A stretch of DNA of 64,000 nt from Minisyncoccia bacterium (GCA_049303835.1 JBAQNN010000001.1:1762-65761); one strand, 5' to 3'; shown: positions 22,174-63,207, counted from the first letter of the stretch. Numbers and translations: made by a program. The notes: generated by a model from the sequence alone, not told the origin.

Positions 22174-22252
22174 TTTCCAAGTTTGCTTTTTTTACAATTT
22201 AAGGTAAAATTGATAAGTGCCGTAGAAGGCATTTTTTAATGTTTTTTAACAA

Positions 22253-22278
22253 ATAGCGGGGTAGAGAAGAGGCATCTC
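22253..22278 (+). repeat. 26-nt direct repeat: duplicated 5' end (acceptor plus D-arm) of the downstream tRNA(CAT) gene
   Basis: 'ATAGCGGGGTAGAGAAGAGGCATCTC' occurs at 22253-22278 and again at 22337-22362. The upstream copy is followed by an unrelated inverted repeat (TCTCCAAAA...TTTTGGAGA). Confidence 0.7.
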
Positions 22279-22338
22279 CAAAAGGACTAATAGCGCGAAT
22301 AACTTTAAGGTTTTGGAGATTAATGTTTATTGCTTCAT

Positions 22339-22409
22339 AGCGGGGTAGAGAAGAGGCATCTCGTAAGGCTCATAACCTTAAGACTCACGTTCGATTCGTG
22401 ACCCCGCAA
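22339..22409 (+). tRNA. tRNA-Met/Ile2-type (anticodon CAT)
   Basis: Manual fold. Acceptor AGCGGGG/CCCCGCA (1:72 mismatch), D-arm GAGA-AGAGGCA-TCTC, anticodon arm TAAGG-CTCATAA-CCTTA, T-arm TCACG-TTCGATT-CGTGA. No encoded CCA. Confidence 0.7.
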
Positions 22410-22462
22410 CAAGTCCGGCCAAGTGACATGGCATGTCTAATTGTCGGATATAGTGTATAATT

Positions 22463-22535
22463 GTCGGCGTAGCTCAGTTAGTAGAGCACGGGACTCATAA
22501 GCCCGGGGTCGCAGGCGCACTCCCTGCCGCCGACA
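22463..22535 (+). tRNA. GC-rich tRNA with anticodon CAT, unusual D-loop (no GG) and T-loop (CGCACTC, no TTC)
   Basis: Manual fold. Acceptor GTCGGCG/CGCCGAC (perfect 7 bp), D-arm GCTC-AGTTAGTA-GAGC, anticodon arm CGGGA-CTCATAA-GCCCG, T-arm GCAGG-CGCACTC-CCTGC, discriminator A. A 9-nt duplicate 'AATTGTCGG' lies 15 nt upstream. Confidence 0.55.
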
Positions 22536-22561
22536 CCCTCAAAAAAGAGGAAGTGTTTAAA

Positions 22562-22646: not shown

Positions 22647-22720
22647 GCGATCGTAGCTCAACTGGTTAGAGCACTCGCCTGTCACGCGAGAGGTTGGCGG
22701 TTCAAATCCGCTCGGTCGCG
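22647..22720 (+). tRNA. tRNA-Asp (anticodon GTC)
   Basis: Manual fold. Acceptor GCGATCG/CGGTCGC, D-arm GCTC-AACTGGTTA-GAGC, anticodon arm CTCGC-CTGTCAC-GCGAG, T-arm GGCGG-TTCAAAT-CCGCT, discriminator G. Confidence 0.85.
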
Positions 22721-24343
22721 CAACATGAGATTAATTCTCTCAAATGACTTTTGAGCTTTACTGCCATTAGCTTTTTCCAGTTCCCACCCTGCGATAGCGG
22801 CCTCAATGGTATTCTTCTCTTTTGCAATCGGTTTTAGCCATTTCATACTGTCAATACTGAGTATTTTGTCTTTTACCACGCAGTTCCCACCCAGAGCTAA
22901 AAATATTTCTTTTTTAGTTTGAATGTCGCCTGCAATGAATCGTTCTCTGGCTGTTGAAGCAAAATTAAACGTCTTTTCAGTTAATTCTAGCCACTTATCA
23001 GCTCTGTTTTCTGTCTCACGAGCATTTTGTCTGAGTATTGCAATCTGCCCTTTTAGTTTCGTTTTTTCACTCAAAAACTGCTCATCATCAATGAGGTCTC
23101 GGTATCGCATTTGCGTTAATCGATCCAGTTGGCTTTGTGTTTCGTCAAGAGTTTTTTGTTGGGTGTTGGCTACTGCTGTTCTATCGCTGATTTCCTGATC
23201 ATTACTTCTTTTGATTATATCTATGGCCCAGTCTCTGAATTCGGGAGTAATGGTAATTTTTTCAAGTTCAGTTTTTATCTGACCTTCTAGCGATTTGCCG
23301 GTAGTGTAGTTATTTTGGCCACACTTACTACCCTTGTTTCTTCGCATACAATAATAATATTCGAAGGTGGCAAGCTTGCCAGTGCTTTTGATAATTTTCG
23401 TTTTTACAATCGCCGTCATACTTCCACCGCATTCACCGCAACGAATACAGCCAGTGAAAGCATGTTGATGCTTTTGAGGACGAGGCTTGCCTTTTTTGCC
23501 TAGGATTATCTGCGCTTTGTCGAATTCTTCCAGTGTGATCATCGGCTTATGGGTTCCTTCGTGCCATTCTCCTCGATATTTAAACATTCCAGTATAAAAG
23601 GCATTGGAAAAAAGCTCAAAGATACTACTGTGTCCGATTGGACCTTCGCCTCTTTTCTTTGTCTTTCGTGTTCTGAAACCCCAGACATTATTCATCATTT
23701 CAAGTATCTGAGTGGGGGAGTAGGCTTCAGAAAGAAGCATGTCCCAGGCTTTTCTGACTAAATCGAAACGATCTGGATCTACCTTGATGTAATTCTCGCC
23801 TCTGTTTTCGAATTTAGTATTTAAGTAGCCTAGTGGCGCAAGAAGCGGAGCCAGCCCTTTTGCAATCTTGCTGTTCACGCCTCTTCTGACATTTTTCTTC
23901 ATGTCTCGGATAAACTGATTAGCAGATCCAGTTTCAACACTGAGAATAAGGGCATTGTCATCTGGCAAATACTCTCGGCTCATTGTTTGGATTGATTTAA
24001 CAACTTCTTCTTGAAGTAACCATTGAATTGTCCCGCCGTCTACCGGATTGCGTGATAGTCGATTAATTTCCCAACACAAAATACCATCTGCTTCACCCGT
24101 CTTGATTCTTCGTATCATATCTTCAAAAACTTTACGCTTGAATGGTGCTTTTGCTGATTTTGATTCAAAAAGAATATCAACAATGTTAAGACCTTCATCC
24201 TTTGCCAAAATCTTTAAACTATTTATTTGATCGTCGATAGACTGGACCTGCCTTTCCGATGATTCGGAACTTTTTCTAGCATACAGGAAATATTTAATTT
24301 TACTAATTTCATTTTTCATATTATTTTCGATTAAACTTAACAT
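22682..24343 (-). CDS. large serine recombinase (phage-integrase-type resolvase/invertase family)
   Basis: N-terminal 'YLYARKSSESSERQVQSIDDQ' (catalytic Ser context Y-x-R-x-S), recombinase domain, zinc ribbon 'CIRCGECGG...YYYCMRRNKGSKCG', C-terminal coiled-coil. The last 13 codons are antisense to tRNA-Asp positions 22682-22720. Confidence 0.85.
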   Translation of the reverse strand: MLSLIENNMKNEISKIKYFLYARKSSESSERQVQSIDDQINSLKILAKDEGLNIVDILFESKSAKAPFKRKVFEDMIRRIKTGEADGILCWEINRLSRNPVDGGTIQWLLQEEVVKSIQTMSREYLPDDNALILSVETGSANQFIRDMKKNVRRGVNSKIAKGLAPLLAPLGYLNTKFENRGENYIKVDPDRFDLVRKAWDMLLSEAYSPTQILEMMNNVWGFRTRKTKKRGEGPIGHSSIFELFSNAFYTGMFKYRGEWHEGTHKPMITLEEFDKAQIILGKKGKPRPQKHQHAFTGCIRCGECGGSMTAIVKTKIIKSTGKLATFEYYYCMRRNKGSKCGQNNYTTGKSLEGQIKTELEKITITPEFRDWAIDIIKRSNDQEISDRTAVANTQQKTLDETQSQLDRLTQMRYRDLIDDEQFLSEKTKLKGQIAILRQNARETENRADKWLELTEKTFNFASTARERFIAGDIQTKKEIFLALGGNCVVKDKILSIDSMKWLKPIAKEKNTIEAAIAGWELEKANGSKAQKSFERINLMLRDRADLNRQPLA

Positions 24344-24370: not shown

Positions 24371-26365
24371 CTAGAAAGGCAAATCTTTCTGCTCCGGTGG
24401 TTGTTCTGGTAATTTTGGGGGAGTATTATCAACAACCTTTTTATCTTTTTCGACCTCTAGACCCAAACTGTCAATAAAACTATCAAGTCTAGTTTTAGGA
24501 GTATCCCCAAGATGCCTTGCTTGTTCCAAGGCGCCCACTTCTTTAAGCTGGGCATCTTCGGTGTTGAGGGCACCTTCGGGAAGTTTCCACTCCCAAAAAC
24601 CGTCTTTAAATGAAGAAGATTTTTTTGATTTAATGCCTAATTTTCCACGAGCATCTCTCAATGGTTTCGAGGTAATGCCAATTCTTTGAGCTTCCTTGAT
24701 CGCTTCGTCTGCCTTGGCTGGTCCTTCCGCTAAAAGATCAATCAAAAAATTGACAGCTTCATCGGTGGCAGTGTGTTGCTCTGTTGATTGAGAGAACGCA
24801 AGAGCTTCTTCCGTTGTAATTTCTACTGGTTCAGATTCCCAGGCAATTACGGGTTGTCCATTTTCTGCTTCAACAATAGAATAAGCAAGTCCAGTTTTAT
24901 CTTTTGCGATATTGTTTTTCAAAGGCATCAACAATCGACGCTCTGGATTTTCTTTGTCCTTCGTAACTATATAAGCAGTTCGGACAGCAGCGGTAAAGGC
25001 TAGTGAACCCATAACTCGATACGATGCATTACCTCCACTGTTTTTGTTAAGATGACTTACTAGAACAATCGCGACTTTGTGTTTTGATGCTAGTTCTGCT
25101 AAAGGTGCCAGTAGGCCTCGTATATCAGAATTATTATTACTATCTGCGCTATCCAAATACGCAGATATTGGATCAATAATAACTAGCTTACAATCTGGTA
25201 GGCTAGATAATAAATCTCCAAGCGTTGCGATGTCGCGCTTGAATGAAAACATATGCTGAGTTGATTCACTTTCAGAATCTATTATCTCTTCCTGTATTGC
25301 TTCCACTACGTGAATACGAGCACAGTCAGCCCCTGCTGCTTCAAGACGGGGCTTAATTGTATCCGCTGGATCATCCTCTGCCGATATCAATATTATGTCT
25401 CCAGTTGGAGGTATTGATTGATCAACTGGCCAAGCGTAACCTTTAGAAACATGAGCTGCCAAAGTGGCAGTAACTAGGCTTTTTCCAAGTCCTGGATCTC
25501 CTGCAACCATAGTAAGTTTTCCAAGAGCTATTCGTCCCTGCCATAACCAGCTAATCGGGACCGACTGTATATCAGTAAAGCATTTTACTATGGCTTTACC
25601 TTTACTATATTTTACCTGCGATGTATTTCTTGCTTGTATTTTGTTACTTTGAACATGCAGTCTTTTAATGCTGTCCCAAGTACTCCTTAGTTCTCTGATT
25701 GCAAGAGGTTTTGGATTTTTAGTATTCCAGATTTGCAATTGTTCCCAACCTAAAATCTCCCACAATTCTGAATCCGTAGAACTTAGAATCTTGCCTGCCA
25801 TAGAGGCCGCTGTGTCGTTTCTGGAGCCTTCAGCGACACCATTTTTACCTAATAACCACTTCTTTTCGATCTTTTCTTCTGCATTTGCTGTTTTGGTAAT
25901 CCAAGTTGGCCACTCCGAAAAATCTGAATCAGACGGGGATATTTGCCACTCGTACTCTCCCTTGTCACTTACAGATGGAGCAGCTAAAACATAACCGCCG
26001 TCTCCGCGAATATCTGTTAACTCTTTAACTCTTGTGCCATTTGGAACCTCGTAACCAGGGTGTTTGTAGTAGAGGTGAATCCCATCGCCTCCTGTTTTTG
26101 CTGTAACGGTTGGAGGATAGCCTTGACTGTTTCCACCCTTTTCGATGTCCACCACAACTATGCCAGAAATCTTTCCTGTCACTATTGCAATATTCATCGC
26201 TGGATATTTTTCAATCCACTCCTTAATTTCCTCCGGAGTTGCTCGTTTGTTTTGATACTCCTTCCAGTTGATTAATGGTTTCTTGTCTGCACCGACTGGA
26301 ATCACCGAAAATCCTCTTGCCTCATAATCTAACGCTGAATCTAAAACATTTTTCATATTTTCCAT
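24371..26365 (-). CDS. bifunctional primase-polymerase (Prim-Pol N-terminal domain) fused to AAA_25/RepA-like P-loop ATPase
   Basis: 'RGFSVIPVGADKKPLINWKEYQ' and 'VVVDIEKGG' in the Prim-Pol domain. 'LTMVAGDPGLGKSLVTATLAAH' is a Walker A, with 'ILISAEDD' downstream. Confidence 0.75.
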   Translation of the reverse strand: MENMKNVLDSALDYEARGFSVIPVGADKKPLINWKEYQNKRATPEEIKEWIEKYPAMNIAIVTGKISGIVVVDIEKGGNSQGYPPTVTAKTGGDGIHLYYKHPGYEVPNGTRVKELTDIRGDGGYVLAAPSVSDKGEYEWQISPSDSDFSEWPTWITKTANAEEKIEKKWLLGKNGVAEGSRNDTAASMAGKILSSTDSELWEILGWEQLQIWNTKNPKPLAIRELRSTWDSIKRLHVQSNKIQARNTSQVKYSKGKAIVKCFTDIQSVPISWLWQGRIALGKLTMVAGDPGLGKSLVTATLAAHVSKGYAWPVDQSIPPTGDIILISAEDDPADTIKPRLEAAGADCARIHVVEAIQEEIIDSESESTQHMFSFKRDIATLGDLLSSLPDCKLVIIDPISAYLDSADSNNNSDIRGLLAPLAELASKHKVAIVLVSHLNKNSGGNASYRVMGSLAFTAAVRTAYIVTKDKENPERRLLMPLKNNIAKDKTGLAYSIVEAENGQPVIAWESEPVEITTEEALAFSQSTEQHTATDEAVNFLIDLLAEGPAKADEAIKEAQRIGITSKPLRDARGKLGIKSKKSSSFKDGFWEWKLPEGALNTEDAQLKEVGALEQARHLGDTPKTRLDSFIDSLGLEVEKDKKVVDNTPPKLPEQPPEQKDLPF

Positions 26366-26387: not shown

Positions 26388-26918
26388 TTATAAGTTTCTA
26401 TCCTCCGGTTCGACATAGGACATACCTATCAGCCGGAATAACTCTGCTTCTTCGCGCAGTTCATATTTCTCGCCGTTACGGTATAAGTAACCGCCCGAAC
26501 TATTAAATCCATTTCGGACCCAACCATTCGCTAAAACGTAGTGGCTGTAATCCGCTGAGCCAGTTCTAATTGCCAACACAGATCCCCAATTTCCTTCTTC
26601 TGCAAAGAACAAATCGAGTTTTATTCCTTCCGGTAAAACGCGCTGAGTGTATTTACAGGGAAGTTCTCCTTTAATTTTCTTCCATTTATTAACGACACTA
26701 GCGATGCCATCTTCCAAAAGCCCCACTGAATATGGTTTTGGAATTGCCACGATTTCTATATCTTTGACCTCTGACTTTTGTCTTCGAATACTTCCAGCAA
26801 TTTCAGCGCGTATGCAATACGGCTTCAACTGCTCTAACACTTTTAACGCTATTGCTTGCGCCTCCGCTAAGGGATAGCGTTTTTCTACTACTTCATTTTT
26901 TACATTTTCTTGTTTCAT
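26388..26918 (-). CDS. minimal DNA polymerase beta-like (PolX family) nucleotidyltransferase, palm plus thumb only
   Basis: 'AGSIRRQKSEVKDIEIV' is the GS-x-RR...D-x-D/E Pol-beta signature. Third carboxylate in 'IKLDLFF'. C-terminus 'YVEPEDRNL' resembles the Pol-beta C-terminus '...REPKDRSE'. 176 aa. Confidence 0.65.
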   Translation of the reverse strand: MKQENVKNEVVEKRYPLAEAQAIALKVLEQLKPYCIRAEIAGSIRRQKSEVKDIEIVAIPKPYSVGLLEDGIASVVNKWKKIKGELPCKYTQRVLPEGIKLDLFFAEEGNWGSVLAIRTGSADYSHYVLANGWVRNGFNSSGGYLYRNGEKYELREEAELFRLIGMSYVEPEDRNL

Positions 26919-26943: not shown

Positions 26944-27126
26944 TTATTGACGAGGAGAGTTTTGAGTTAAGTTAGACTCTTTCTCGACTAATGGTTTATA
27001 GACAATAGACACCAATCGCAAAAGCTTCCCGCCTTGATCAAGGGCATCCTCTCTGCTGATATTGATTCCAAAGATTTTTTTATAAAGCTCCTGGAATTTG
27101 GCTATGTCTTTGTCTGATAGGACCAT
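26944..27126 (-). CDS. small hypothetical protein (60 aa)
   Basis: ORF in operon position between PolX and the upstream gene. No motif. Confidence 0.3.
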   Translation of the reverse strand: MVLSDKDIAKFQELYKKIFGINISREDALDQGGKLLRLVSIVYKPLVEKESNLTQNSPRQ

Positions 27127-28484: not shown

Positions 28485-29558
28485 TTGCTGCAGATTTTTT
28501 TGTTTCTTGGTATAATATACATAATGCCTAAAATATTAACTACAATTGATCTTTTTGCCGGTATCGGCGGAATCCGTAAAGGATTTGAACGAGCCGGTTT
28601 TGAAACACTCTATGCTTCGGACATAGATAAAGGGTGCAAGGTCACTTATGATGCAAATTATAAAACTACGCCTCTTACTATGGAGAGCATAATTGATATC
28701 GTTCCAAAAACTCTCCCTGATTTTGATGTTTTGCTGTCGGGATTCCCATGCCAATCTTTTTCTATGGCTGGTGGTAAGGCAGGTTTTGCGGACAAGGGAA
28801 GGGGGGATCTCTTTTTTGAAATAATGAAAGTTCTTGAAGTAAAAAAGCCACGTGTGGTATTTCTTGAAAACGTCAAACATCTAGCTAAGCATGATCATGG
28901 CCGTACTTTTATTGTCATAAAAGAGCTTCTTGAGCGTTGTGGTTATTATGTAAAATTTGCAACGATGAACAGTGCTGAATATGGTAATGTTCCGCAAAAT
29001 AGGGACCGTATATATATTGTAGGATTTTTGGATCCAAAGGCTCGTGATGCTTTTGAATTTCCATCTAAAAAAATTCTTAAAAAATCAACTGCTGATTTGT
29101 TGGAAACAGATGTGCTAGAAAAATATTATTATAAAAAAGGCTGGCTATACGATCGCATAAAAGGGCTAGGTATGAAGCAGGGGCTTGTGTATCAATGGCG
29201 TAGGGTTTATTTAAGAGAAAACAAAAGCGGACTCTGTTCTACCTTGACCGCAAATATGGGAATGGGGGGTCATAATGTTCCTTTGATCCGAGACAAAAAA
29301 GGATTGAGGCGACTTACTCCCCGCGAATGTGCTCGTTTACAGGGATTTCCTGATAGTTTTAAATTGCCAGCATCGTTGCCGGATTCTCGTTTATACAAAC
29401 AGATTGGTAATTCTGTAACAATTCCCGTAGTGGAGCGTATCGCTCACAACATTAGCCTTGCGTTAGAGACAGTTGAGAAAACACATAAAGAATACATAAA
29501 TAAAAAATATATTATGAAGCGACACTCTGTAAAACAATTAGCTGAGTTTACTGTTTAA
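28485..29558 (+). CDS. DNA (cytosine-5)-methyltransferase
   Basis: Motif I 'LFAGIGGIRKGF', motif IV 'GFPCQSFSMAG', motif VI 'ENVKHL', motif X 'QIGNSVTIPV'. Confidence 0.9.
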   Translation: MLQIFLFLGIIYIMPKILTTIDLFAGIGGIRKGFERAGFETLYASDIDKGCKVTYDANYKTTPLTMESIIDIVPKTLPDFDVLLSGFPCQSFSMAGGKAGFADKGRGDLFFEIMKVLEVKKPRVVFLENVKHLAKHDHGRTFIVIKELLERCGYYVKFATMNSAEYGNVPQNRDRIYIVGFLDPKARDAFEFPSKKILKKSTADLLETDVLEKYYYKKGWLYDRIKGLGMKQGLVYQWRRVYLRENKSGLCSTLTANMGMGGHNVPLIRDKKGLRRLTPRECARLQGFPDSFKLPASLPDSRLYKQIGNSVTIPVVERIAHNISLALETVEKTHKEYINKKYIMKRHSVKQLAEFTV

Positions 29559-29871: not shown

Positions 29872-31770
29872 ATGGCCAATACTTCAAACAAAAATGAAAA
29901 CAATAAGATTTTAAGTTGGCATTTCCCAGCTCTTGATCACGCTGACACAGAAGGGTTGAATGATCCACTTCTTGGATACTTTAGTGGTGACTACAATCAA
30001 AATGTTGCAAGAGAAGTAATACAGAATTCTATAGATGCACGAAACGACAGTGAACATCCGGTGTTGGTTAAATTCGAAAAACTAAAGTTGCCCACAGCAG
30101 AAATTCCAGGAATAAAAGAGTTGCAAGAGCGAATAAAAATTTGTTTAGATCAAGCCAAAAGTGAAAAAAATGATAAGGCAGAGAAACATTATCATGAAGC
30201 ATTAGAAGCTACTAAGGCTTCTCATACTGTCATTCTTAGAGCTTCCGACTACAATACTTCTGGCTTGGATGGTAATGATGATGATAAAAAGGGTAAATGG
30301 CATCGCCTTGTGAAAGCAGTTGGAGAAAATCAACTCACAGGTGCTGGTGGCGGATCATATGGAATTGGAAAGGGTGCGCCATTTGTTGCTTCACTTATGA
30401 GGACAGTTTATTACTCAACAAAAAATTCATTAGGAGAAACCATATTCCAAGGAAAAGCACGACTTCTTAGTCATCAATGGGAAAGTAAAGATTATCGTGG
30501 AGTAGGTTCTTTTGGTATTGGTGGTTATAAGTCAGTAAGAGATGTAAATGATATACCGAATTTTTTTATACGAAATGAACAAGGAACAGATATTAATATT
30601 ATTGGATACAGCCCATCATTAGCGTGGAAGGATGAACTTGCAAAATCAGTTTTAGATAATTTTTGGATGGCTATACATGCTGGTGATCTTGAGGTTATTA
30701 TAAAAGAAGGGTTGATTGATATCCACATTGATCGAGCTAGCCTACTTGGTCTTTTAGAAAAATACAGCCGAAATGATGGTCTTATTTATTATCGTACTGT
30801 AATTAATCCAACGCGAACATTTAAAAAACAACTCCCGTTACTTGGTGCTTGCACTTATTATGTGCGTATTGAAGAAAAATTTCCTAGAGAAACAGTGTAT
30901 ATGCGTCGCCCTAAAATGTGTGTAAATAAATGGCGTTTTAATAAAACACTTCATGAACCTCACGCTGGTGTATTTATTTGTGAGGATGTAGAAGGAAGTA
31001 AATTATTACGAAACCTTGAACCACCAGAACATGATGATTGGAAAGCAACACTAGAACCCCTACAAGGTAAAGAAATTTTGGATATTGTAAGGTCGTGGAT
31101 AAAAGATAGTTTGCTTGAATTGGCGGCAGACGAAAGTAATGATTCGGAAGAAGTTCCCGGACTAGAACAGTTTTTGCCGTATGATGAAGATTCTGAAAAT
31201 ACATCTCTAAATAATAAAAATAAAAGTAAACCCACAGGTTCAGCAGAATTGGATGAAGGACCACTTGAAACTGGAGCTGAACGTGAGGAAGAAGTTGATG
31301 AGGTAGAAGACTATGTTAGAAAGCCATCAAGCCAAAGACCTTCAGGTGGTAGTGGACCAGGATTTAGCCATGGTGGTGGCAGTAATGGTGGAAGTGGTGG
31401 TGGTGATAGTATTGGTGGAGACAATGACGACAGGAACGAAAATATTAAACGAATTGATACATCTTCCGTAAAATTTAGAATAATTTACACTGGACAGTCA
31501 AAAAAGGGAAATGCAGAATATTGCCTAGTTGTTCAACCTCTTGCTGATGTAGAAGGGGGCATAGAAATTGTCGCTCTTGGTAATGATTCTACGGTATATC
31601 CAATTCCACTTGCTTATGTTGAACCGTGGGACAAAAGTAATGATTCTTTTCGTGCTGAGGGGTCCTATATAAACGGATTAAATTTTAAAAAAGGAAAAAC
31701 CCAACGCATTAAAATAGGTACAATGTCTAGGTCGAGGTATGCACTAGGAATAGAAAATTATGAAAGCTAA
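29872..31770 (+). CDS. GHKL-superfamily (MORC/MutL/Hsp90-like) ATPase with unknown C-terminal region containing an acidic/Gly-rich low-complexity linker
   Basis: Bergerat N-box 'AREVIQNSIDA' (ExxxNSxDA) near the N-terminus and a G2-box-like 'TGAGGGSYGIGKGAPFVAS'. The 3' end overlaps the next gene by 11 nt. Confidence 0.65.
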   Translation: MANTSNKNENNKILSWHFPALDHADTEGLNDPLLGYFSGDYNQNVAREVIQNSIDARNDSEHPVLVKFEKLKLPTAEIPGIKELQERIKICLDQAKSEKNDKAEKHYHEALEATKASHTVILRASDYNTSGLDGNDDDKKGKWHRLVKAVGENQLTGAGGGSYGIGKGAPFVASLMRTVYYSTKNSLGETIFQGKARLLSHQWESKDYRGVGSFGIGGYKSVRDVNDIPNFFIRNEQGTDINIIGYSPSLAWKDELAKSVLDNFWMAIHAGDLEVIIKEGLIDIHIDRASLLGLLEKYSRNDGLIYYRTVINPTRTFKKQLPLLGACTYYVRIEEKFPRETVYMRRPKMCVNKWRFNKTLHEPHAGVFICEDVEGSKLLRNLEPPEHDDWKATLEPLQGKEILDIVRSWIKDSLLELAADESNDSEEVPGLEQFLPYDEDSENTSLNNKNKSKPTGSAELDEGPLETGAEREEEVDEVEDYVRKPSSQRPSGGSGPGFSHGGGSNGGSGGGDSIGGDNDDRNENIKRIDTSSVKFRIIYTGQSKKGNAEYCLVVQPLADVEGGIEIVALGNDSTVYPIPLAYVEPWDKSNDSFRAEGSYINGLNFKKGKTQRIKIGTMSRSRYALGIENYES

Positions 31771-32590
31771 AAACATATCATATCCATATCCTGTTCTAGG
31801 CAATGACGATGATGTAGAGGGTAAACTCGACGCTTCTTTTAAACACATGCTCAAGCGAGATAATATAATTCTTAAATCTCGTTTTTCACTGAAAAATAAA
31901 ACTCTCGAAAAACTCATAAAAGAAAAAAAAGCTATATATACAGTGGAAGTAGAATGTCCTAGTACTTTTTTTAGAAAACTTTTTTCTACTTTTGAGCCAG
32001 AGGCAGATTTTGTATTACCTTCAACTATAGTACGAGAACATGTTTCGGTAGGATTTTTTATTCGTGCTACCGACAATATACCAAAATATGAAATAGTTGG
32101 TTGTCATTCTGATTATAAGGGATTTAAGTTTGATGTAGGACCTGGAGATGTTTTGGCGCTTGGTGGATTTACGTCTTTTATTGCAGAAAAAGATTTTGAT
32201 CCAATGCAACCCGCTGTTTCGTCTCTTATTGCAATTAAGCAAGGGAATAATGATACAGGACCCATGGAAATAGATTATTCACAAGACAAAATTTTTATTA
32301 AACTTTCTCATAAAGACCATAAAAACTATTCGCAAATAAAAGGACAAGCAACTATTGCCGGGGTTCTGCATTCTTCTATTGTGTTGCCTGTTTTAACTGA
32401 TGCTATTCGTTTAGTTAATGAAAATAATGAAGAAACACAGGATAGACACTGGTTTCGACGTCTTGAGGTGATTTTACGACAGCAGGAACTTTCAGATGAA
32501 GATCCACTTATTAGCTCACAGAAGATTTTGCGTAGTCCAATAGAACGTTGTTTAGCAGGTCTCGTCGAAACAACCGAAGCGGATGAATAA
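31760..32590 (+). CDS. hypothetical protein (276 aa), translationally coupled to the GHKL ATPase
   Basis: Overlapping start/stop with the upstream gene. No motif recognised. Confidence 0.45.
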   Translation: MKAKNISYPYPVLGNDDDVEGKLDASFKHMLKRDNIILKSRFSLKNKTLEKLIKEKKAIYTVEVECPSTFFRKLFSTFEPEADFVLPSTIVREHVSVGFFIRATDNIPKYEIVGCHSDYKGFKFDVGPGDVLALGGFTSFIAEKDFDPMQPAVSSLIAIKQGNNDTGPMEIDYSQDKIFIKLSHKDHKNYSQIKGQATIAGVLHSSIVLPVLTDAIRLVNENNEETQDRHWFRRLEVILRQQELSDEDPLISSQKILRSPIERCLAGLVETTEADE

Positions 32591-32599
32591 AAAACAAAT

Positions 32600-33391
32600 A
32601 TGACTAATCAAAATATTTTCAAACGGATGTATGTAGCAGAACTTCGAGATAAAATACGAAGCGGAGAATCTTTGTGTGATTATTTTAAAAAAGATGTTGA
32701 ATACCCCATAGAGACTTTAATTCAATCTACAATTAAAACAGATCCAGAGAAACTTAAACTAAAATATCGTGGTAAAAACGAATCAGCAAGTAACGATCTA
32801 GAAAACGCCATAGCTTTATATGAAGCATTTCCAGACTTAACTGAAACACAGGCTTCAGACCCTAGACTTTGGACATATCTTACCCACGTTACCCTGCGAG
32901 ATTATGTATTTGCTAGATGGCCGATCGGAGGTAGTTGTGAACAGATAAAAACTGATAGCAAACAGCAAGCTACTACCATTGATTTTATACTAAGTCACTG
33001 GTTTGCTTCTGGTGGCAACGATCGTTTACTCCGTCGTAACGCAGCAGCTCGTTTATGGTGGCCAGTACATCTCACACATGCTCCATGGTTACGTGAACCA
33101 GAATTTTTTGCAGATTTAAAAACAAATGACCCGTATCGTTTCACAAAAATATTACTTTCAATGGAAAGTATTTATGCAGAGGTGCTTGAACGGGGATTAG
33201 GTCGCGACAACCGTATACTCATAACAGTCTTGGAATTTTTTGAAGCAAACAAAAGTATTAAACGAGAGCAAATTCGTAGTTTTATGAAAGAACTAAATCT
33301 TTTTCTTTCTGTTAGAAATCTCTCTTTATTGTCGAGGAAAGAGATGAAGGAAACAATATTTGATATCGGTAACACAACTCTAAAAGAATAA
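32600..33391 (+). CDS. hypothetical protein (263 aa), Trp/Arg-rich
   Basis: 9-nt gap after the previous gene, same operon. 'RLWTYLTHVTLRDYVFARW' conserved-looking block. No motif recognised. Confidence 0.45.
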   Translation: MTNQNIFKRMYVAELRDKIRSGESLCDYFKKDVEYPIETLIQSTIKTDPEKLKLKYRGKNESASNDLENAIALYEAFPDLTETQASDPRLWTYLTHVTLRDYVFARWPIGGSCEQIKTDSKQQATTIDFILSHWFASGGNDRLLRRNAAARLWWPVHLTHAPWLREPEFFADLKTNDPYRFTKILLSMESIYAEVLERGLGRDNRILITVLEFFEANKSIKREQIRSFMKELNLFLSVRNLSLLSRKEMKETIFDIGNTTLKE

Positions 33392-34425: not shown

Positions 34426-34749
34426 TTATTTTTTTGCTAATTCAGTGACTTGTCTATAATGGAATAGATAAACACTCTTGATTCTTTTAACAATTTTAGT
34501 CGGATCCTTTTTGTCACGTGTTTCTAACACAACAAAAGAACGGATAGCATGCTCACCTTTTTTAGGGATCATATTAAATTTCAAAATCCAATTTTTCGCC
34601 GTAAGAGTTGAGCGTAACGGATCGTAGTTACGTAATTCACTTTTGCCCCACCTGCGGCAAATTTCATCCTCAACTATAGATCTCGTTTTGGATGACCCAC
34701 TAAAATTACTTATCTCAGGACCTTCTAATATTTCTTTTATAGATTTCAT
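34426..34749 (-). CDS. conserved hypothetical protein (107 aa), copy 1 of element right-end module
   Basis: Homologous to 62893..63207 ('MKSIKEILEGPEISNFSGSSKTR' vs 'MIQSIKEILAGPKVSNWHGSEKTR'). Confidence 0.55.
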   Translation of the reverse strand: MKSIKEILEGPEISNFSGSSKTRSIVEDEICRRWGKSELRNYDPLRSTLTAKNWILKFNMIPKKGEHAIRSFVVLETRDKKDPTKIVKRIKSVYLFHYRQVTELAKK

Positions 34750-35045: not shown

Positions 35046-35200
35046 TAACTTAATAACGAAGAGAGTAGCCTAAACCTTTAGAAATAAAGGCATGGTGAAG
35101 AAAACATTTCACAGTATCAAGCTCCTAGTCAGAGCACTGTGAAATGTCGTATTCCGAAAGGTCTACGGGTCTCGCAAGAGATCGCTGGCTAGGAGCTTTA
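35046..35200 (+). ncRNA. candidate structured non-coding RNA (copy 1), unknown family
   Basis: Conserved 5' block 'AGTAGCCTAAACCTTTAGAAATAAAGGCATGGTGAAG'. Hairpin CATTTCACAGT/ACTGTGAAATG, long-range GCTCCTAGTCAG/CTGGCTAGGAGC, GNRA hairpin TCTC-GCAA-GAGA. No ORF. Its paralogue at 63.5 kb shows compensatory base changes. Confidence 0.5.
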
Positions 35201-35262
35201 TGTTCTCGGTTGGCGAACTTGAAAGCTTGACATTTTATTTAATTATAGTATAATTGATTATT

Positions 35263-42788: not shown

Positions 42789-44468
42789 TTAGCATATTTG
42801 CGCCGATGATTGAAAGGTCGGAATATAGATTGTAGTATCATTTACAAGCTCAAACGCAGTTCTAACATCGTCCAATAGTCCGCGCAACAGTGAACGAAGA
42901 TGAGGAAAGTCATAAATCGTCTTTTGTTTACAAGCTAGTTCTGGTTCAGTACTAGCCAACTGCTCTCTTAGTGAAGAGTAGGCTTTTTGAATGTGGAAAT
43001 ACCATTCGAAGGCTTTAATATTGACTATTTTGTCTTTTATCTCTCGGTTCATACCCAGACTCTTGATGATTTCTTTTCGGGTTCTTTTGTCCCCATTTTT
43101 AAGAGCAATCAAGGCATAAGTAGAATAATAGAATGCTTTCTCAGTTAATTCCATAAGATTTTCATTCTTGTCAGCTTCAACCTCAGTTAATTGGGTTTTT
43201 AGGCTATTTATTGTCTTGTCTAACTCTGCTCTAGATTCTTTGAATTCATCATCTGAAAGTAACCCCCTAGATGCCATTAGGATCAACTTCTTTAATTCTT
43301 CCTGCTTAGTTTCTACGGTCTTTGATACATTTTCTTTTACATCTTTCTCCGTTACCGTTTCTAGAACATTATTGTCTTTCAGTACTTCAAGTGTCCAACT
43401 TAAGAAAGCAGAATCAATTGTATATTTTTGGATTTCAGCCTCTATTTGTTCCTCTACCTTGGTTTCGTTAATATTGTATTTCTGGCTGCAGTAAACTACA
43501 CTCTTTTTATGACCACAGAGATAAAATACATAAACTTTTGTTTCTTTAGTACTTTTTATAAATTTAATCTTCTCAATCCCAACGAATGAACGATTGCACT
43601 CGCCACACATAAAAGTTCCACAACCATAGGCAAATTCATGGGTTTTTGCTCTTGGTTTACCATGTTCTTTAAGGAGCGTCTGTACGCGGTCAAATTCTGC
43701 CATAGTTATCATTGGTTTATGATCTCCTTTATACATTTTACCTTTATACATAAAGTATCCAGTGTAAAACATATTGGTAAACATGCCGTAAGCGCTAGTA
43801 TAGCCAATCTTTCCTCCACCAACTTTTTTCTTTTTGGGAGTAAGTAAGCCCCACTCTTTTGTAGCAATCTCTCGCACTTGGGGGACACTATAGTTTCCAG
43901 TTAGTAATAAATCCCACATTTTACGAACAAGAGGGAATCGTTCTACATCTTCCATTATTTTATTTTCTCCTCGTGTTGCTAATTTTGTATTATAATAACC
44001 AACTGGTGCTAGGCATGGCATTCTCCCCATACTTAATTTATCGCCTAATCCACGTTTTACATCAACACCAAGTTTGGAAGAATAATATTGTGAATCTGAA
44101 AGAGCGTTTTGTAGGTGTTTTATTCCATCTGGTGTATTTTCAAAAGTGTAACTTACAAATTTTAAATCTTTAATTAGATTTTTTCTTATAGAATAGGTAA
44201 TATCTCCAGCTTCTTTTTCATTTCTTGAGAGGCGATCTGGGTGCCAAGCTATTATTCCATGCAACTCACCACTTAATGCCATATTAAGCATTCTTACAAA
44301 TTCTGGTCTATTGTTGGGTTCAAAGGCACTACGACTTTCTTCAAACCAGACAATGTCGAAGTCTGGAAATTTATTTTTGATTGCTTCCTTTTGCGAGGCA
44401 ATTGAAAGCGCTTGTTTTTCTTTTGCTTCACTCGATTTACGTATATACCCTCCATATTTATATTTCAT
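42789..44468 (-). CDS. large serine recombinase (paralogue of 22682..24343)
   Basis: 'GGYIRKSSEAKEKQALSIASQ' catalytic Ser motif. Zinc ribbon 'CGTFMCGECNRSF...FYLCGHKKSVVYCSQ'. Aligns along its length with the element-1 recombinase. Confidence 0.85.
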   Translation of the reverse strand: MKYKYGGYIRKSSEAKEKQALSIASQKEAIKNKFPDFDIVWFEESRSAFEPNNRPEFVRMLNMALSGELHGIIAWHPDRLSRNEKEAGDITYSIRKNLIKDLKFVSYTFENTPDGIKHLQNALSDSQYYSSKLGVDVKRGLGDKLSMGRMPCLAPVGYYNTKLATRGENKIMEDVERFPLVRKMWDLLLTGNYSVPQVREIATKEWGLLTPKKKKVGGGKIGYTSAYGMFTNMFYTGYFMYKGKMYKGDHKPMITMAEFDRVQTLLKEHGKPRAKTHEFAYGCGTFMCGECNRSFVGIEKIKFIKSTKETKVYVFYLCGHKKSVVYCSQKYNINETKVEEQIEAEIQKYTIDSAFLSWTLEVLKDNNVLETVTEKDVKENVSKTVETKQEELKKLILMASRGLLSDDEFKESRAELDKTINSLKTQLTEVEADKNENLMELTEKAFYYSTYALIALKNGDKRTRKEIIKSLGMNREIKDKIVNIKAFEWYFHIQKAYSSLREQLASTEPELACKQKTIYDFPHLRSLLRGLLDDVRTAFELVNDTTIYIPTFQSSAQIC

Positions 44469-44480
44469 AATTTTTTTATA

Positions 44481-44738
44481 TTAATTAATAATCGAGACTT
44501 TCTTAGTTTTAAGAAACATCTTTTTAGCCAGAGCATGGGAATAATCGGATATACTTACTGGCTGATAAAGAATTGCTATTGTTCGGAGTAGTGTTTCTGC
44601 TCGTGTGAGTGCTTCTGGTTCCGATAATGTTACACCAGTTTTTGCTTTAAAGAGATTTATAAACTGCAGAAGTCTTTTGTTAGAAATATTCATGCTGGTT
44701 AAGTTCATCCTATTAAATTTATTTGTAATTTTATCCAT
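44481..44738 (-). CDS. small hypothetical protein (85 aa)
   Basis: ORF between recombinase and prim-pol. Confidence 0.3.
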   Translation of the reverse strand: MDKITNKFNRMNLTSMNISNKRLLQFINLFKAKTGVTLSEPEALTRAETLLRTIAILYQPVSISDYSHALAKKMFLKTKKVSIIN

Positions 44739-44927: not shown

Positions 44928-46955
44928 CTAAAATGGTGGATTATCAATGCCATCTTCGTCTCTTTCGACCTCTTCACATTCAAACGATTCTTTATAATCT
45001 TCCTGTTTTCCTGCCTCTATATAGGATACGGAAGCAGGAAGATCATCAACTTGGGTAATTTTGATAGGAGAAAGTATCCAAGGGAGGCGGTAGTGTGCCT
45101 TTTTGCGGTTTTCTTTTGGTACTTCTCCTTTTGGAACTCTTTCAATCTTTTCATCATCTTCTGCTAGTTTTATTCCTCGGTCTATAACATCTCTACCGTA
45201 ATCATCTTCAAAAAATTCAAGAATTTCTGAACGACTTTTCATTTCTTCTCCTAGAAATGACACTAAAGCTGTTCCTACTTCTTCGGCTTTCTTCTTCTTT
45301 TCATCGTGATCACCAGCATATTCAAATCCAGATGGACCCGATTCGCTTTTAATGATGTTGATTTCAAACGGTGACAACAATTCACCTTGACGTAATTTCG
45401 TTTGTCGGAGAATAAGGCGATCTTCGTTCTCGTTTTTCTTCTCAATAGTCATATGACAATCTACCGCTGCTAAAATATCTGATGAACCTCGCATACTTTG
45501 GCCAGGATTATTTGACCCTTGTCCTTTTTGTTGTTTTCTGTGGTGGTGAGTAAAGAGGATAGATGCTCCCTCGGTAATTATTTTTTGGAGATTACTAAAC
45601 ACCTTTGCCATACCACCTGCATCATTTTCATCTTGTCCATGAACTCGAACAAGAGAATCAAGTATGACTAGTTTTATATTTTTTTCTTTAACAATCCCTA
45701 GTATCATGTCGCGGACTTCTTCCATATCCACTTTAATACCACTCTGTGATAGATAATGAATATTATCAGTTTCTTTTGCACCAAGTAATTCCAAACGCTT
45801 TTGTAATAGTCGTATGTGATCTTCTTCGTCTATTATCAATACACCTCCCTGTGATGCCTTGAATTTACCAAAGACAGGAAGATTGCGTGATACACAAAGT
45901 GCAATATGAATAGTCACCCAAGTTTTGAAGTCTCCAGGGTTACCAGAGAGTGCCATCATGCCTTGTTTGGATATTAATGAATCTACAAGCCATTCCTCCT
46001 CTCCAAAGTCTTGCTCTAGAATTTCCCCAATCGTCCATAAGCGAGGTCTGTTTGTGGAGGACATTCTGGCTTTCATTTCAGTTTCTCTATCTTTTACTTT
46101 AAGTTTAAGTATCCCTTCGAAAGTGTTATCTAATTCTTGTTTACGTTCCTCAAATCGTTCTTTTGATCCTACGATTTTTTGATCCCATGCGTAATAATTC
46201 ATTCTGGCAGTTTCAACCTTTTCTGCGGTGTCTGCATGTTTAAGAAGAAGACCTGCTATCTGTGCTAATGCTCCATGTCGTAGACCTTTACCTATTGGTA
46301 CGCCTTTAAGCAACAATTCCATTGCAGGAGTTTTAGTGTTAACTTCATCGTCAGAATATTTTGGGACCATTGCATCCAGCTCTTCAAGTGTACATCTTGC
46401 TTCTGGCTTATATGACACAATTTTAATTTCAAAAGGATTATTAGGATCTTTTAAGTGTAGTGTATAAGGCAAACGAAGCACTCGTGATGGATCAATGGGA
46501 TTTTTGTCACCATTAAAACACTGCACTAGTCTTTTCTGTACAGCTCTCCATTTCATGATGTTTTCTAATGTAGGTTTAAGAGATTCTGGAAAAAGCCAAA
46601 TGAGATGAGTTCCTTTTTGAGTACGGTTAATTATCGTTGGAGTTGGCACACCAGTTTCTAGGCCTGACATAAGAGTTTCTTGAATCAATCTGTCTTTTTC
46701 TTCTTGGGGTAGTCTGACCTCTACATCAAAATCAACATAGTTACCATTTAAAGATAGCAACTGTGATTGGTCTGCCTTACCAGTAGGAGGAAATCCATTG
46801 ACTGTGAAAAAGATGCCGTACCCTTTTTTATTCCACGATAGATCAAGTACACTGCTTCCTTGTATGGCTAATCCATTTGTTGAGTCATGTATATAGCGGA
46901 ATCGAGTGTTGGGGAAGAGCGCTATAAACTCTTCTTGTGTTAGTTTTTCTTGCAT
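44928..46955 (-). CDS. prim-pol-like primase fused to AAA_25/RepA-like ATPase (paralogue of 24371..26365)
   Basis: Same position as in element 1. P-loop region 'ALSGNPGDFKTWVT...VLIIDEEDH'. N-terminal region diverged. Confidence 0.6.
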   Translation of the reverse strand: MQEKLTQEEFIALFPNTRFRYIHDSTNGLAIQGSSVLDLSWNKKGYGIFFTVNGFPPTGKADQSQLLSLNGNYVDFDVEVRLPQEEKDRLIQETLMSGLETGVPTPTIINRTQKGTHLIWLFPESLKPTLENIMKWRAVQKRLVQCFNGDKNPIDPSRVLRLPYTLHLKDPNNPFEIKIVSYKPEARCTLEELDAMVPKYSDDEVNTKTPAMELLLKGVPIGKGLRHGALAQIAGLLLKHADTAEKVETARMNYYAWDQKIVGSKERFEERKQELDNTFEGILKLKVKDRETEMKARMSSTNRPRLWTIGEILEQDFGEEEWLVDSLISKQGMMALSGNPGDFKTWVTIHIALCVSRNLPVFGKFKASQGGVLIIDEEDHIRLLQKRLELLGAKETDNIHYLSQSGIKVDMEEVRDMILGIVKEKNIKLVILDSLVRVHGQDENDAGGMAKVFSNLQKIITEGASILFTHHHRKQQKGQGSNNPGQSMRGSSDILAAVDCHMTIEKKNENEDRLILRQTKLRQGELLSPFEINIIKSESGPSGFEYAGDHDEKKKKAEEVGTALVSFLGEEMKSRSEILEFFEDDYGRDVIDRGIKLAEDDEKIERVPKGEVPKENRKKAHYRLPWILSPIKITQVDDLPASVSYIEAGKQEDYKESFECEEVERDEDGIDNPPF

Positions 46956-47272
46956 ATAATTTGCTCTACTTTAACCACTTTATTAATGCCCGACTTATCC
47001 GTATTCATTTTTGCTTTTTTCTCTGCTCCAGGAGGTGTAATACCGTCATTTTTCGTACGGTTAAGGGGTGAATTTAGGAGATAGATATATTCGAGAATCT
47101 GCTTCTTCTCTGATCTGTCATACTCTTCTTTGTCGACCAAAAGATTGAACCATCTCGCGATTCTGTCGCGAGAGAAGTTCTTTCCACTTACTATGCGATT
47201 GAATATGATAACTGAACCCAAATTAGGGTTTTCTTTAGACACTTTATCAAACAATCTTTTAATGCTCTTCAT
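46940..47272 (-). CDS. small hypothetical protein (110 aa)
   Basis: ORF overlapping the prim-pol start by 16 nt. Confidence 0.35.
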   Translation of the reverse strand: MKSIKRLFDKVSKENPNLGSVIIFNRIVSGKNFSRDRIARWFNLLVDKEEYDRSEKKQILEYIYLLNSPLNRTKNDGITPPGAEKKAKMNTDKSGINKVVKVEQIICKKN

Positions 47273-47300: not shown

Positions 47301-47828
47301 TTATAAGTTTCTGTATTCTGGTTCGACAAACGGAATACCAATTAATTTGAATAAATCTTTTTCTTCTCGAATCTCGTATCTTTCACCATCTCTGAATAGA
47401 TATCCGCCCTCGCTTTTGAATCCTTGTCGGACCCAACCGTTGGCTAATACTTTATGGCTGTAGTTTGCTGAGCCAGTTCTAATTGCAAAGACAGATCCCC
47501 AATTTCCTTCTTCGGCGAAAAATAAATCAAGCTTTATTCCTTCTGGCAATATACGTTGAGTGTATTTGGTTTTTTCGTATTCCATTTCTCCCTTTATTTT
47601 TGGCCATTTATTGACAACACTTGCGATTCCGTCTTCCAAAAGTCCCGTTGAATAGGGGAGAGGAATTGCCACAATTTCTACATCACCACAATCCGCTTTC
47701 TTTCTGCGGATGCTTCCCGCAATCTCGGCACGTATACAATACGGTTTCAATTGCTCTAACACTTTTAACGCTATCGCCTCGGCTTCTGCTAATGGATAAC
47801 GTTTTTCTTTTATTGTTTTATTTGTCAT
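47301..47828 (-). CDS. minimal DNA polymerase beta-like (PolX family) nucleotidyltransferase (paralogue of 26388..26918)
   Basis: 'AGSIRRKKADCGDVEIVAIP', 'IKLDLFFAEE', C-terminal 'FVEPEYRNL'. 175 aa; clearly alignable throughout with the element-1 copy. Confidence 0.65.
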   Translation of the reverse strand: MTNKTIKEKRYPLAEAEAIALKVLEQLKPYCIRAEIAGSIRRKKADCGDVEIVAIPLPYSTGLLEDGIASVVNKWPKIKGEMEYEKTKYTQRILPEGIKLDLFFAEEGNWGSVFAIRTGSANYSHKVLANGWVRQGFKSEGGYLFRDGERYEIREEKDLFKLIGIPFVEPEYRNL

Positions 47829-54993: not shown

Positions 54994-55554
54994 ATGAATT
55001 ACAGCATCAAAAAACAAGTTAATTATTCTTTCACTGGTGCAGTTTCAAAAACCAAAGCCGTATTAGCGGAAGAAGGATTTGGAATTCTGACGGAGATTGA
55101 TATTAAAGCAACTCTAAAAAATAAGCTGGATGTTGAGTGGGATAATTATGTTATTTTGGGAGTTTGTAATCCAAGTTTGGCTTATCAAGCTTTGCAAGAA
55201 GAAAAAGAAATTGGGTTATTTCTGCCTTGTAATGTGATTGTGTACGAAGATAAAGGGAAGGTTTTTGTGTCGGCTATTATTCCAACTGTGGCTATGAAAA
55301 TGATAGAAAATAAATCATTAAATAAGGTCGCTAGCCAAGCAGAAGAAAAACTAAAAAAAGTCATGGATAAAATATCTAGTAAAAATCAAGACGAAAAACC
55401 AAGAAAGGTGTTTGATCTTGTGTGTGGTATGGAACTTAATATGAGTGATGTCACACATGCCTTTGAACATGAAGGTAAAGAGTATTACTTCTGTTCTAGT
55501 ACGTGTAAGGGTCATTTTGTGAGTGATCCTGATATGTATATAGGAGAAAATTAA
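54994..55554 (+). CDS. DUF302 domain protein with C-terminal YHS/TRASH metal-binding domain
   Basis: 'EEGFGILTEIDIKATLKNKL' (DUF302). 'DLVCGMELNMSD...YYFCSSTCKGHF' (YHS). Confidence 0.65.
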   Translation: MNYSIKKQVNYSFTGAVSKTKAVLAEEGFGILTEIDIKATLKNKLDVEWDNYVILGVCNPSLAYQALQEEKEIGLFLPCNVIVYEDKGKVFVSAIIPTVAMKMIENKSLNKVASQAEEKLKKVMDKISSKNQDEKPRKVFDLVCGMELNMSDVTHAFEHEGKEYYFCSSTCKGHFVSDPDMYIGEN

Positions 55555-62892: not shown

Positions 62893-63207
62893 TTATTCTA
62901 TAGGAACGACAGATCTATAATAAAAGAGGTTCACTTTTCTAGGATAGCGTTTGATAACATTTCCTTGAGCATCTTTGCGCTCAATGTACATTACACTCTT
63001 CAGAGCCTTACTCCCTTTTTTGGGACGGTATCCCAAAGAGGCCCAAACGGAAAATGGAAGGGCAGACTTTTCTGCTGAGTAATTAGCTAGTTCACTCTCA
63101 CCCCATATTTTCTTTATTTGCTCAGCTACCATGTCACGCGTTTTTTCTGACCCATGCCAATTGCTAACTTTAGGGCCAGCTAAGATTTCTTTTATACTTT
63201 GAATCAT
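62893..63207 (-). CDS. conserved hypothetical protein (104 aa), copy 2
   Basis: Paralogue of 34426..34749. Confidence 0.55.
   Translation of the reverse strand: MIQSIKEILAGPKVSNWHGSEKTRDMVAEQIKKIWGESELANYSAEKSALPFSVWASLGYRPKKGSKALKSVMYIERKDAQGNVIKRYPRKVNLFYYRSVVPIE

Follow-up and report, generated by a model that had tools for sequence, protein, structure and literature searches.

A palm-and-thumb-only PolX-family protein encoded beside primase-helicases in two integrative elements of a Minisyncoccia bacterium

Results and Discussion

Mini-PolX is a PolX-family protein by sequence and predicted fold

A 64,000-nucleotide stretch of a Minisyncoccia bacterium contig (GCA_049303835.1, JBAQNN010000001.1:1762-65761), hereafter the window, contains two mobile elements (elements 1 and 2), each of which encodes a protein of about 175 amino acids (aa) that we call mini-PolX. 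By sequence and predicted fold, mini-PolX is a member of DNA polymerase family X (PolX) and consists of a Pol-beta-type nucleotidyltransferase palm and a C-terminal thumb (nascent-base-pair-binding) subdomain alone. It is encoded in the replication/integration backbone of integrative elements of the candidate phyla radiation (CPR), co-directionally with a primase-helicase and a serine integrase. A previous reading of the window without database searches (the sequence-only reading) had proposed two open reading frames (ORFs) of this kind, and both were found at exactly the coordinates and lengths given in Table 1. Copy 1 (P0001) is on record as a hypothetical protein of a Minisyncoccia (Patescibacteria/CPR) metagenome-assembled genome, and copy 2 (P0009) lies on the same 68-kb contig.

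Mini-PolX is a real gene under strong purifying selection. Between the two copies the nonsynonymous divergence (dN) is 0.14, the synonymous divergence (dS) is ~1.8, which is near saturation, and dN/dS is ~0.08. Because a protein search recovered 3084 homologues at E≤1e-3 and dN is so far below dS, the resemblance is not due to chance.

In Pfam, the thumb family DNA_pol_B_thumb (PF14791) was matched at 27.8 bits by copy 1 and at 28.5 bits by copy 2, with a gathering cut-off of 25. Mini-PolX covers positions 151-314 of the 571-position PolX equivalog of NCBIfam. When copy 1 was searched as a single sequence against the PDB using phmmer, it matched residues 154-312 of Thermus thermophilus PolX (Tth PolX). 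For a profile of 30 close homologues, the 60 PDB matches listed included Tth PolX, African swine fever virus (ASFV) Pol X and Pol beta, lambda and mu. The main family profile was built from 147 representatives that are at most 50% identical to one another. It aligned the complete palm of mini-PolX to Tth PolX (E 2e-14) and also matched Pol lambda (1.5e-12), ASFV Pol X (4.9e-12) and Pol beta (1.6e-11). At E≤0.01 this profile matched 102 PDB sequences, and among the matches listed 60 of 60 were family X polymerases.

The sequence-only reading had proposed structure modelling as a check. An alignment-based AlphaFold2 (AF2) model of copy 1 (pLDDT 89, pTM 0.83) superposes on the solved palm and thumb of PolX, the best Foldseek match in the PDB being Tth PolX (3b0x, TM score 0.79 by query length, E 2e-10). 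There were 330 PDB matches at E≤1e-3, and the best 50 (E≤2.3e-9) were all family X polymerases. The named matches in BFVD at E≤1e-3 were giant-virus PolX proteins (Pithovirus, Catovirus and a 174-aa protein of Harvfovirus) together with an entomopoxvirus protein of 603 residues that bears the name 'Probable AP endonuclease'; several further matches had no name. PHROGs gave no family for either copy at E≤0.01.

A non-polymerase nucleotidyltransferase without a thumb had been named as the outcome that would overturn the polymerase assignment, and the profile and fold searches for it came out negative. It is thus extremely improbable that mini-PolX is a minimal nucleotidyltransferase (MNT) of the toxin/antitoxin-partner type, an antibiotic or protein nucleotidyltransferase, a CCA-adding-like enzyme or a synthase of signalling nucleotides. 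The small size and the GS...DxD/E signature, which is general to the Pol-beta superfamily, would suit such an enzyme, as would the defence cargo of the host elements. However, neither NTP_transf_2 nor any other nucleotidyltransferase family was found in Pfam for either copy, even at E≤1, and no such family, cGAS-like enzymes included, had a significant match among the listed PDB, BFVD or Pfam results. Mini-PolX has the conserved thumb specific to PolX, including the C-terminal P..R motif; no HEPN partner was found, and PADLOC gave no match for mini-PolX. The MNT/antitoxin and CCA-adding readings were rejected, since the searches place the protein in family X and the thumb is present.

Catalytic residues and extent of the protein

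As shown by HMMER alignments, the motif residues of copy 1 (Table 1) have direct counterparts in characterized family X polymerases. G42-S43-I-R45-R46 corresponds to GSARR of Tth PolX and 179GSFRR183 of Pol beta. D53-I-E55 aligns with D198-L-D200 of Tth PolX, and D102, which lies in IKLDLFF, aligns with D243. I117-R118-T119-G120-S121 corresponds to YLTGS of Tth PolX and 271YFTGS275 of Pol beta, and S125 to the Ser that replaces N279 of Pol beta in Tth PolX. At the C-terminus, YVEPEDRNL is the counterpart of WIPPPLRE / YREPAERD in Tth PolX and Pol lambda. E157, F161, P171 and R174 are the equivalents of E316, F320, P330 and R333 in Pol beta numbering; R45 and E157 are therefore equivalent to the R182-E316 pair of Pol beta. 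The Pol-beta signature, third carboxylate and C-terminal motif picked out by the sequence-only reading are thus real, and they align to the catalytic residues of the T. thermophilus enzyme.

The sequence N-terminal to the palm is only about 15 residues long, there is none beyond the thumb, and the whole protein aligns to residues ~154-320 of Tth PolX and 147-334 of Pol beta only. The 8-kDa and fingers domains are therefore absent, as the sequence-only reading had stated, and the PHP domain is absent as well.

A large family with a conserved active site

The 3084 homologues came from a word-indexed search of proteins clustered at 90%, and nearly all of them are 167-205 aa long. An exhaustive profile search covering 1.84 billion cluster representatives gave 7318 matches at E≤1e-3, among which ordinary PolXs will be included, 3587 at E≤1e-10 and 254 at E≤1e-30. 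Most of the best 150 are 156-190 aa long, and the median length of the 147 aligned representatives is 176 aa. Many family members are shorter than 174 aa, predicted members reaching down to ~156 aa. Only a few of the 150 representatives have C-terminal extensions. Some members (P0178, P0152, P0196 and P0148) have N-terminal extensions that by eye look like HNH nuclease, ASCH/PUA-like, DUF4326-like and winged-helix (wHTH) domains.

The first dNTP-binding motif is nearly invariant among the 147 representatives (G42 in 146, S43 in 144, R45 in 143 and R46 in 146). The metal-binding triad is kept to a similar degree: D53 in 144, E55 in 139, with Asp in a further six, and D102 in 143, with Glu in another three. 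In the TGS motif and thumb, R118 is found in 143, T119 in 144, G120 in 146, S121 in 123, E157 in 146, and P171 and R174 in 145 each. D/E triads are counted as canonical in PolX (Prostova et al., PMC9226535), and the inactivated 'noncanonical' PolXs have a scrambled triad and have lost parts of the palm (PMC9226535). Since the triad and the dNTP motifs are kept across the 147 representatives, mini-PolX shows the opposite pattern. The reading of mini-PolX as an inactivated PolX was rejected on this ground.

At least 192 IMG/VR contigs carry a confirmed mini-PolX homologue. In the INPHARED phages, tblastn gave a single weak match, to the 252-aa PolX of E. coli phage vB_EcoM_IME392 (28% identity, E 1e-4), and the family is essentially absent from cultured phages. 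Mini-PolX is not a new kind of enzyme and its family assignment is not hidden; some members are already named 'DNA polymerase/3'-5' exonuclease PolX' by the JGI pipeline. A literature search found no description of a prokaryotic or phage PolX family of ~170 aa, although absence there is not proof of absence. Mini-PolX is a large, apparently uncharacterized clade within an established enzyme family, and its minimal architecture is likewise one already described.

Comparison with known family X polymerases

ASFV Pol X (O174L; 1JAJ, 5HRB) has the same architecture of two subdomains as mini-PolX. Both are ~174-176 aa long, consist of palm and thumb only, and lack the 8-kDa lyase, fingers and exonuclease domains; they share GSxRR, the three carboxylates, TG(S/P) and the C-terminal P..R motif. 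The two are collinear from end to end, positions 24-172 of the profile aligning with ASFV residues 27-173 (E 4.9e-12). They differ in the triad, which is D-E-D in mini-PolX and D-D-D in ASFV Pol X, in their hosts (bacterial mobile elements and phages versus a eukaryotic giant virus) and in their genomic partners, which are a primase-helicase and an integrase for mini-PolX and an AP endonuclease and a ligase for ASFV Pol X. ASFV Pol X is a repair gap-filler (PMC13252658). Reviews as late as 2026 still present it as the smallest DNA polymerase known, and it serves as the example of a PolX with only palm and thumb (PMC13252658). The likeness to ASFV Pol X claimed by the sequence-only reading holds for the architecture only; ASFV Pol X is not the closest relative, the profile scores of Tth PolX and Pol lambda being equal or better. 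Because the profile E-values show no preference for ASFV Pol X over bacterial PolX or Pol lambda, we regard mini-PolX as a minimal clade of its own rather than an orthologue of the ASFV enzyme.

The best match by sequence and fold is the bacterial/archaeal PolX1 (T. thermophilus, B. subtilis YshC; PRK08609). The catalytic residues correspond one to one to D198, D200 and D243 of Tth PolX, and both have Ser at the position of Pol beta N279. Mini-PolX, in contrast, lacks the 8-kDa, fingers and PHP exonuclease/AP-endonuclease domains of PolX1 (~170 versus ~570 aa) and is carried by mobile elements, whereas PolX1 is a chromosomal repair gene. The latest census of bacterial polymerases has only PolX1 and PolX2 (PMC12926913). 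As described there, PolX2 resembles mini-PolX in lacking the PHP and 8-kDa domains, in its conserved polymerase active site, in its spread over domains and viruses, and in being without experimental study (PMC12926913). By the same description the two can be set apart: PolX2 has an extra alpha-helical C-terminal domain (PMC12926913), whereas nothing follows the PolX C-terminus (...RNL) in the window proteins, and mini-PolX, unlike PolX2, also lacks the fingers.

SP15-like/YerA41 phages and vB_EcoM_IME392 likewise encode a family X polymerase. That of IME392 is longer than mini-PolX, at 252 aa, and adjoins a DNA ligase gene. PolX and ligase genes also co-occur in the genomes of SP15-like phages (bioRxiv 10.1101/2025.03.26.645540), whereas a ligase gene is not consistently found next to mini-PolX. 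In vitro, YerA41 PolX fills gaps together with the phage ligase (bioRxiv 10.1101/2025.03.26.645540).

The two elements of the window

The backbone genes of both elements are on the minus strand (Table 1). The tRNA-Asp gene at the left edge of element 1 is the probable integration target, and the 3' end of the serine recombinase gene overlaps it. No att-type direct repeats of tRNA-Asp were found at the far end of element 1, as expected because the integrase is a serine integrase. The PolX stop codon of element 1 is 22 nt from the start of the downstream primase-helicase gene, on the same strand, and the two genes are probably in one operon. The primase-helicase of this element also matches PHROG DNA polymerase/primase families. 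A 356-aa ORF follows the 60-aa ORF in the minus-strand backbone, and homologues of the 60-aa protein were found by jackhmmer in both elements and in loci L001, L006, L008 and L009. The 110-aa ORF that separates PolX from the primase-helicase in element 2 overlaps the helicase gene, and the arrangement looks operon-like here too. This ORF had no Pfam or PHROG match; its homologues in L001, L006 and L009 are likewise found at position +1.

Table 1. Features of the two elements in the window and partner proteins of mini-PolX at other loci
Feature	Position or locus	Strand	Description	Evidence
Mini-PolX copy 1	26388..26918	minus	176 aa; palm and thumb only	ORF, Pfam, PDB phmmer, AF2, Foldseek
Motif residues, mini-PolX copy 1			G42-S43, R45-R46, D53/E55/D102, R118-T119-G120-S121, E157, P171, R174	
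Mini-PolX copy 2	47301..47828	minus	175 aa; 79% identical to copy 1	ORF, Pfam
tRNA-Asp	22647..22721	plus	Left edge of element 1	ARAGORN, Rfam
Element 1 large serine recombinase (integrase)	22682..24343	minus	Resolvase, Recombinase and Zn_ribbon_recom	Pfam
Element 1 primase-helicase	24371..26365	minus	664 aa; Prim-Pol (archaeo-eukaryotic primase, AEP) 5.8e-27, AAA_25 6.4e-31, PriCT_1 1e-4	Pfam
Element 1 conserved small protein	26944..27126	minus	60 aa; just upstream of PolX	jackhmmer
Element 2 large serine recombinase (integrase)	42789..44468	minus		Pfam
Element 2 paralogue of small conserved protein	44481..44738	minus	85 aa; between primase-helicase and integrase	
Element 2 primase-helicase	44928..46955	minus	675 aa; AAA_25 helicase-type ATPase, 2e-25	Pfam
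Element 2 conserved ORF	46940..47272	minus	110 aa; between PolX and primase-helicase	
Partner Prim-Pol (AEP)	L004, L005, L007, L008, L009, L013		With PriCT_1 in five of six	Pfam
Partner AAA_25 protein	L003, L012, L122		Like that of element 2	Pfam
Partner stand-alone AAA_25 ATPase	L002		341 aa	Pfam
Partner BT4734-like_N + PriCT_2 + DUF5906	L022			Pfam
Partner Toprim	L001, L006			Pfam (L001); identical length and position only (L006)
Partner DUF3987	L014			Pfam
Partner HTH_36 + DnaA_N	L031			Pfam

The sequence-only reading had placed PolX two genes from a prim-pol gene. The link to a primase-helicase stands, whereas the distance does not, as the genes are separated by the 22-nt gap in element 1 and by the one 110-aa ORF in element 2. 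Its statement that both elements have a prim-pol gene beside PolX is supported by Pfam for element 1; for element 2 there is no Pfam Prim-Pol match. The N-terminal domain of the element 2 primase-helicase is nevertheless probably a RepB'-like or AEP-superfamily primase with a PriCT_1-like region, judging from its homologues and motifs. One homologue (P0274), 56% identical to the element 2 protein, scored 26.0 bits on RepB_primase, with a cut-off of 24.3, and another (P0273) matched PriCT_1 at 7e-4. AEP-like DxD / H / D motifs are present in the alignment of the domain, and its profile found the PrimPol AEP domain 6zp9 in the PDB weakly (E 0.057). Comparison with the Prim-Pol N-domain alignment by hhalign was not significant (probability 0.8%), and the AF2 model of the domain was unusable (pLDDT 46).

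By pairwise blastp, the PolX proteins of the two elements are 79% identical, the integrases 36% and the primase-helicases 23%, the last over the helicase part only. The higher conservation of PolX could reflect strong constraint on a tiny enzyme or its exchange as a gene cassette.

Genomic context at other loci

The context of mini-PolX was sampled at 38 genome loci and at 80 viral loci out of the 192 confirmed in IMG/VR. The genome loci are mostly from CPR bacteria (Paceibacterota, Nomura-, Moran- and Vogelbacteria, and metagenome-assembled genomes labelled Saccharibacteria), and others are from Bacteroidota, Kiritimatiellae, Anaerolineae, Syntrophaceae, Woesearchaeota and more. A gene order recurs in CPR in which a protein of ~260-350 aa, a small ORF, PolX, a small ORF, a protein of 630-884 aa, a small ORF and a serine recombinase of ~520-580 aa follow one another. 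The order PolX, (small ORF), primase/helicase, (small ORF), serine recombinase was found in L001, L003-L009, L012, L013 and L122.

Partners were typed by Pfam on the large neighbours within three genes of PolX. All-against-all BLAST clustering of neighbours was too strict to recover the primase-helicase link, and jackhmmer from the window proteins caught only some partners. At no fewer than 15 loci beyond the window, a replication gene lies within 1-3 genes of PolX: a primase-helicase in 13, of several unrelated families (Table 1), a stand-alone AAA_25 helicase-type ATPase in one (L002) and an initiator-like protein in one (L031). The co-occurrence with primase genes that the sequence-only reading had suggested surveying is thus observed well outside the window. 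PolX itself stays 65-90% identical while non-homologous proteins repeatedly replace the partner.

On viral contigs, proteins of 240 aa or more encoded up to five genes away from PolX are DNA methylases, SF2/SNF2 helicases, primase/helicase, DnaB, a YqaJ exonuclease, ParB, terminase and portal. This is the replication/recombination-to-packaging junction of tailed phages; the partner of PolX is not fixed there, and no ligase recurs. On one CPR contig (L123 8001-10165, P0114), mini-PolX adjoins a diversity-generating retroelement (RVT_1 and bAvd) and not a primase-helicase.

Proposed role of mini-PolX

Mini-PolX is probably an active, distributive, template-directed polymerase without proofreading that fills short gaps on element DNA. 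We infer gap filling by analogy with ASFV Pol X and YerA41 PolX, and the replication or repair toolkit of the sequence-only reading is likewise suggested by gene order. The primase-helicase would initiate replication of the excised element and mini-PolX would finish it. Gaps would arise from primase-initiated synthesis and primer removal, or as recombination or repair intermediates; mini-PolX would fill the short ones without a lyase domain, the host ligase would seal the nick, and the host replisome would carry out bulk synthesis.

A wider proposal, which we hold only tentatively and consider rather unlikely as a whole, is that mini-PolX is the dedicated DNA-synthesis partner of mobile-element primase-helicases, that its family is the main natural reservoir of palm-and-thumb-only polymerases, and that it is either the source or an independent parallel of the minimal PolXs of giant viruses. 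The primase-helicase would then open and prime the excised element, and a PolX of 160-180 aa would extend and finish the DNA. If so, the element would be partly independent of host repair polymerases, and the predicted members of ~156 aa would be polymerases smaller than ASFV Pol X.

Several observations weigh against a gap-filling polymerase working with a primase. The Pfam palm family DNA_pol_B_palm (PF14792) was matched at 14.9 bits by copy 1 and 23.5 bits by copy 2, below the cut-off of 25. The second carboxylate is Glu, not Asp, in ~95% of family members. The aromatic pair Y271/F272 of Pol beta (H115/F116 in ASFV Pol X) is replaced by I117 and a near-invariant R118, and L129 stands at the position of Pol beta R283 (R127 in ASFV Pol X); given these three residues, template/minor-groove checking, and possibly substrate choice, may differ in mini-PolX. 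At locus L120 no primase partner is present, a tyrosine integrase directly follows PolX, and the cargo is an AlwI-type restriction-modification system. Many phage contexts and some genome contexts also have no primase partner, and the pairing of PolX with a primase is therefore not obligatory. No ligase, AP endonuclease or nuclease is consistently adjacent to mini-PolX in the sampled loci, so that a dedicated base excision repair module like that of ASFV is not supported.

The same substitutions bear on whether mini-PolX acts mainly as a terminal transferase that needs no template, or as an enzyme that uses ribonucleotides or tails primers in the manner of terminal deoxynucleotidyl transferase (TdT) and Pol mu, and so would not chiefly be a templated gap-filler. 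Its substrates for extension or tailing could, for example, be 3' ends at breaks or those that the primase makes. We consider this unlikely. I117 and R118 do replace the pair that in Pol beta contacts the primer terminus and the sugar, the template-checking Arg is lost to L129, and a truncation of Faustovirus PolX to palm and thumb only is reported to keep template-independent synthesis (PMC13252658). However, mini-PolX has no insertion like Loop1 of TdT and Pol mu, its palm being as short as those of Tth and ASFV PolX, and ASFV Pol X, with the same architecture, is template-directed. An end-joining context is also missing, with no Ku or LigD gene nearby.

We give still less credence to a polymerase-dead or non-polymerase PolX derivative that would serve the primase-helicase or the integrase as a DNA-binding accessory, for example in recognition of an origin or a 3' end; this is very unlikely. 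About 27% of prokaryotic PolXs no longer have polymerase activity (PMC9226535), DxE in place of DxD and the low Pfam palm score could hint at divergence, and the gene is closely linked to those of replication and integration. Yet 94% or more of the 147 diverse representatives retain all three carboxylates and the two dNTP-binding motifs (S121 excepted), which is opposite to the scrambled triads and palm deletions of inactivated PolXs. The partner, moreover, changes family while PolX barely changes, which argues against a specific protein-protein adaptor.

As to what a gap-filling mini-PolX would offer, the palm-and-thumb-only architecture is common in prokaryotic mobile elements and phages, with thousands of sequences, and mini-PolX would be a tractable bacterial/phage model of how a polymerase works without fingers or the 8-kDa domain. 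It also provides a testable hypothesis of how small integrative CPR elements complete replication. The family is a pool of very small candidate polymerases with possible use in enzymatic DNA synthesis.

Other features of the window

The cargo of element 1 lies on the plus strand and includes a C5 cytosine DNA methylase (28485-29558) and a complete candidate defence system, PDC-M33, found by PADLOC (A, 29872-31770, E 4e-119; B, 31760-32590; C, 32600-33391, DUF6339). That of element 2 includes genes of copper/heavy-metal homeostasis, which encode DUF302+YHS (54994-55554) and DUF305 (55824-56450) proteins, a methyltransferase of ICMT-like type (57032-57673) and a P-type ATPase that has a heavy-metal-binding domain (59452-61698).

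Two LOOT RNA genes (Rfam RF03000) were found on the plus strand at 35067-35183 and 63520-63641, scoring 82 and 87.5 bits (gathering score 46.4). The far end of each element holds one of them, ~300 bp past one of two homologous minus-strand genes of ~105 aa (34426-34749 and 62893-63207; 41% identical), and ~270 bp surrounding the LOOT RNAs are conserved between elements 1 and 2. LOOT RNA may be carried by this element family or mark its boundary.

Upstream of element 1 is a tRNA cluster (22236-22540) with tRNA-Met (22339-22410) and a third tRNA (22463-22535) that was found by Rfam and not by ARAGORN. The 5' half of tRNA-Met is duplicated, 22236-22278 resembling 22320-22362, and the features of this cluster could be scars of earlier integrations. 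Between the elements, a gene at 35254-40659 encodes a surface protein of 1801 aa with a subtilase domain, multiple Ig-like/HYR repeats and a C-terminal dockerin. Tandem repeats of ~250 and ~500 nt (families D2, D3 and D8) occur within this gene.

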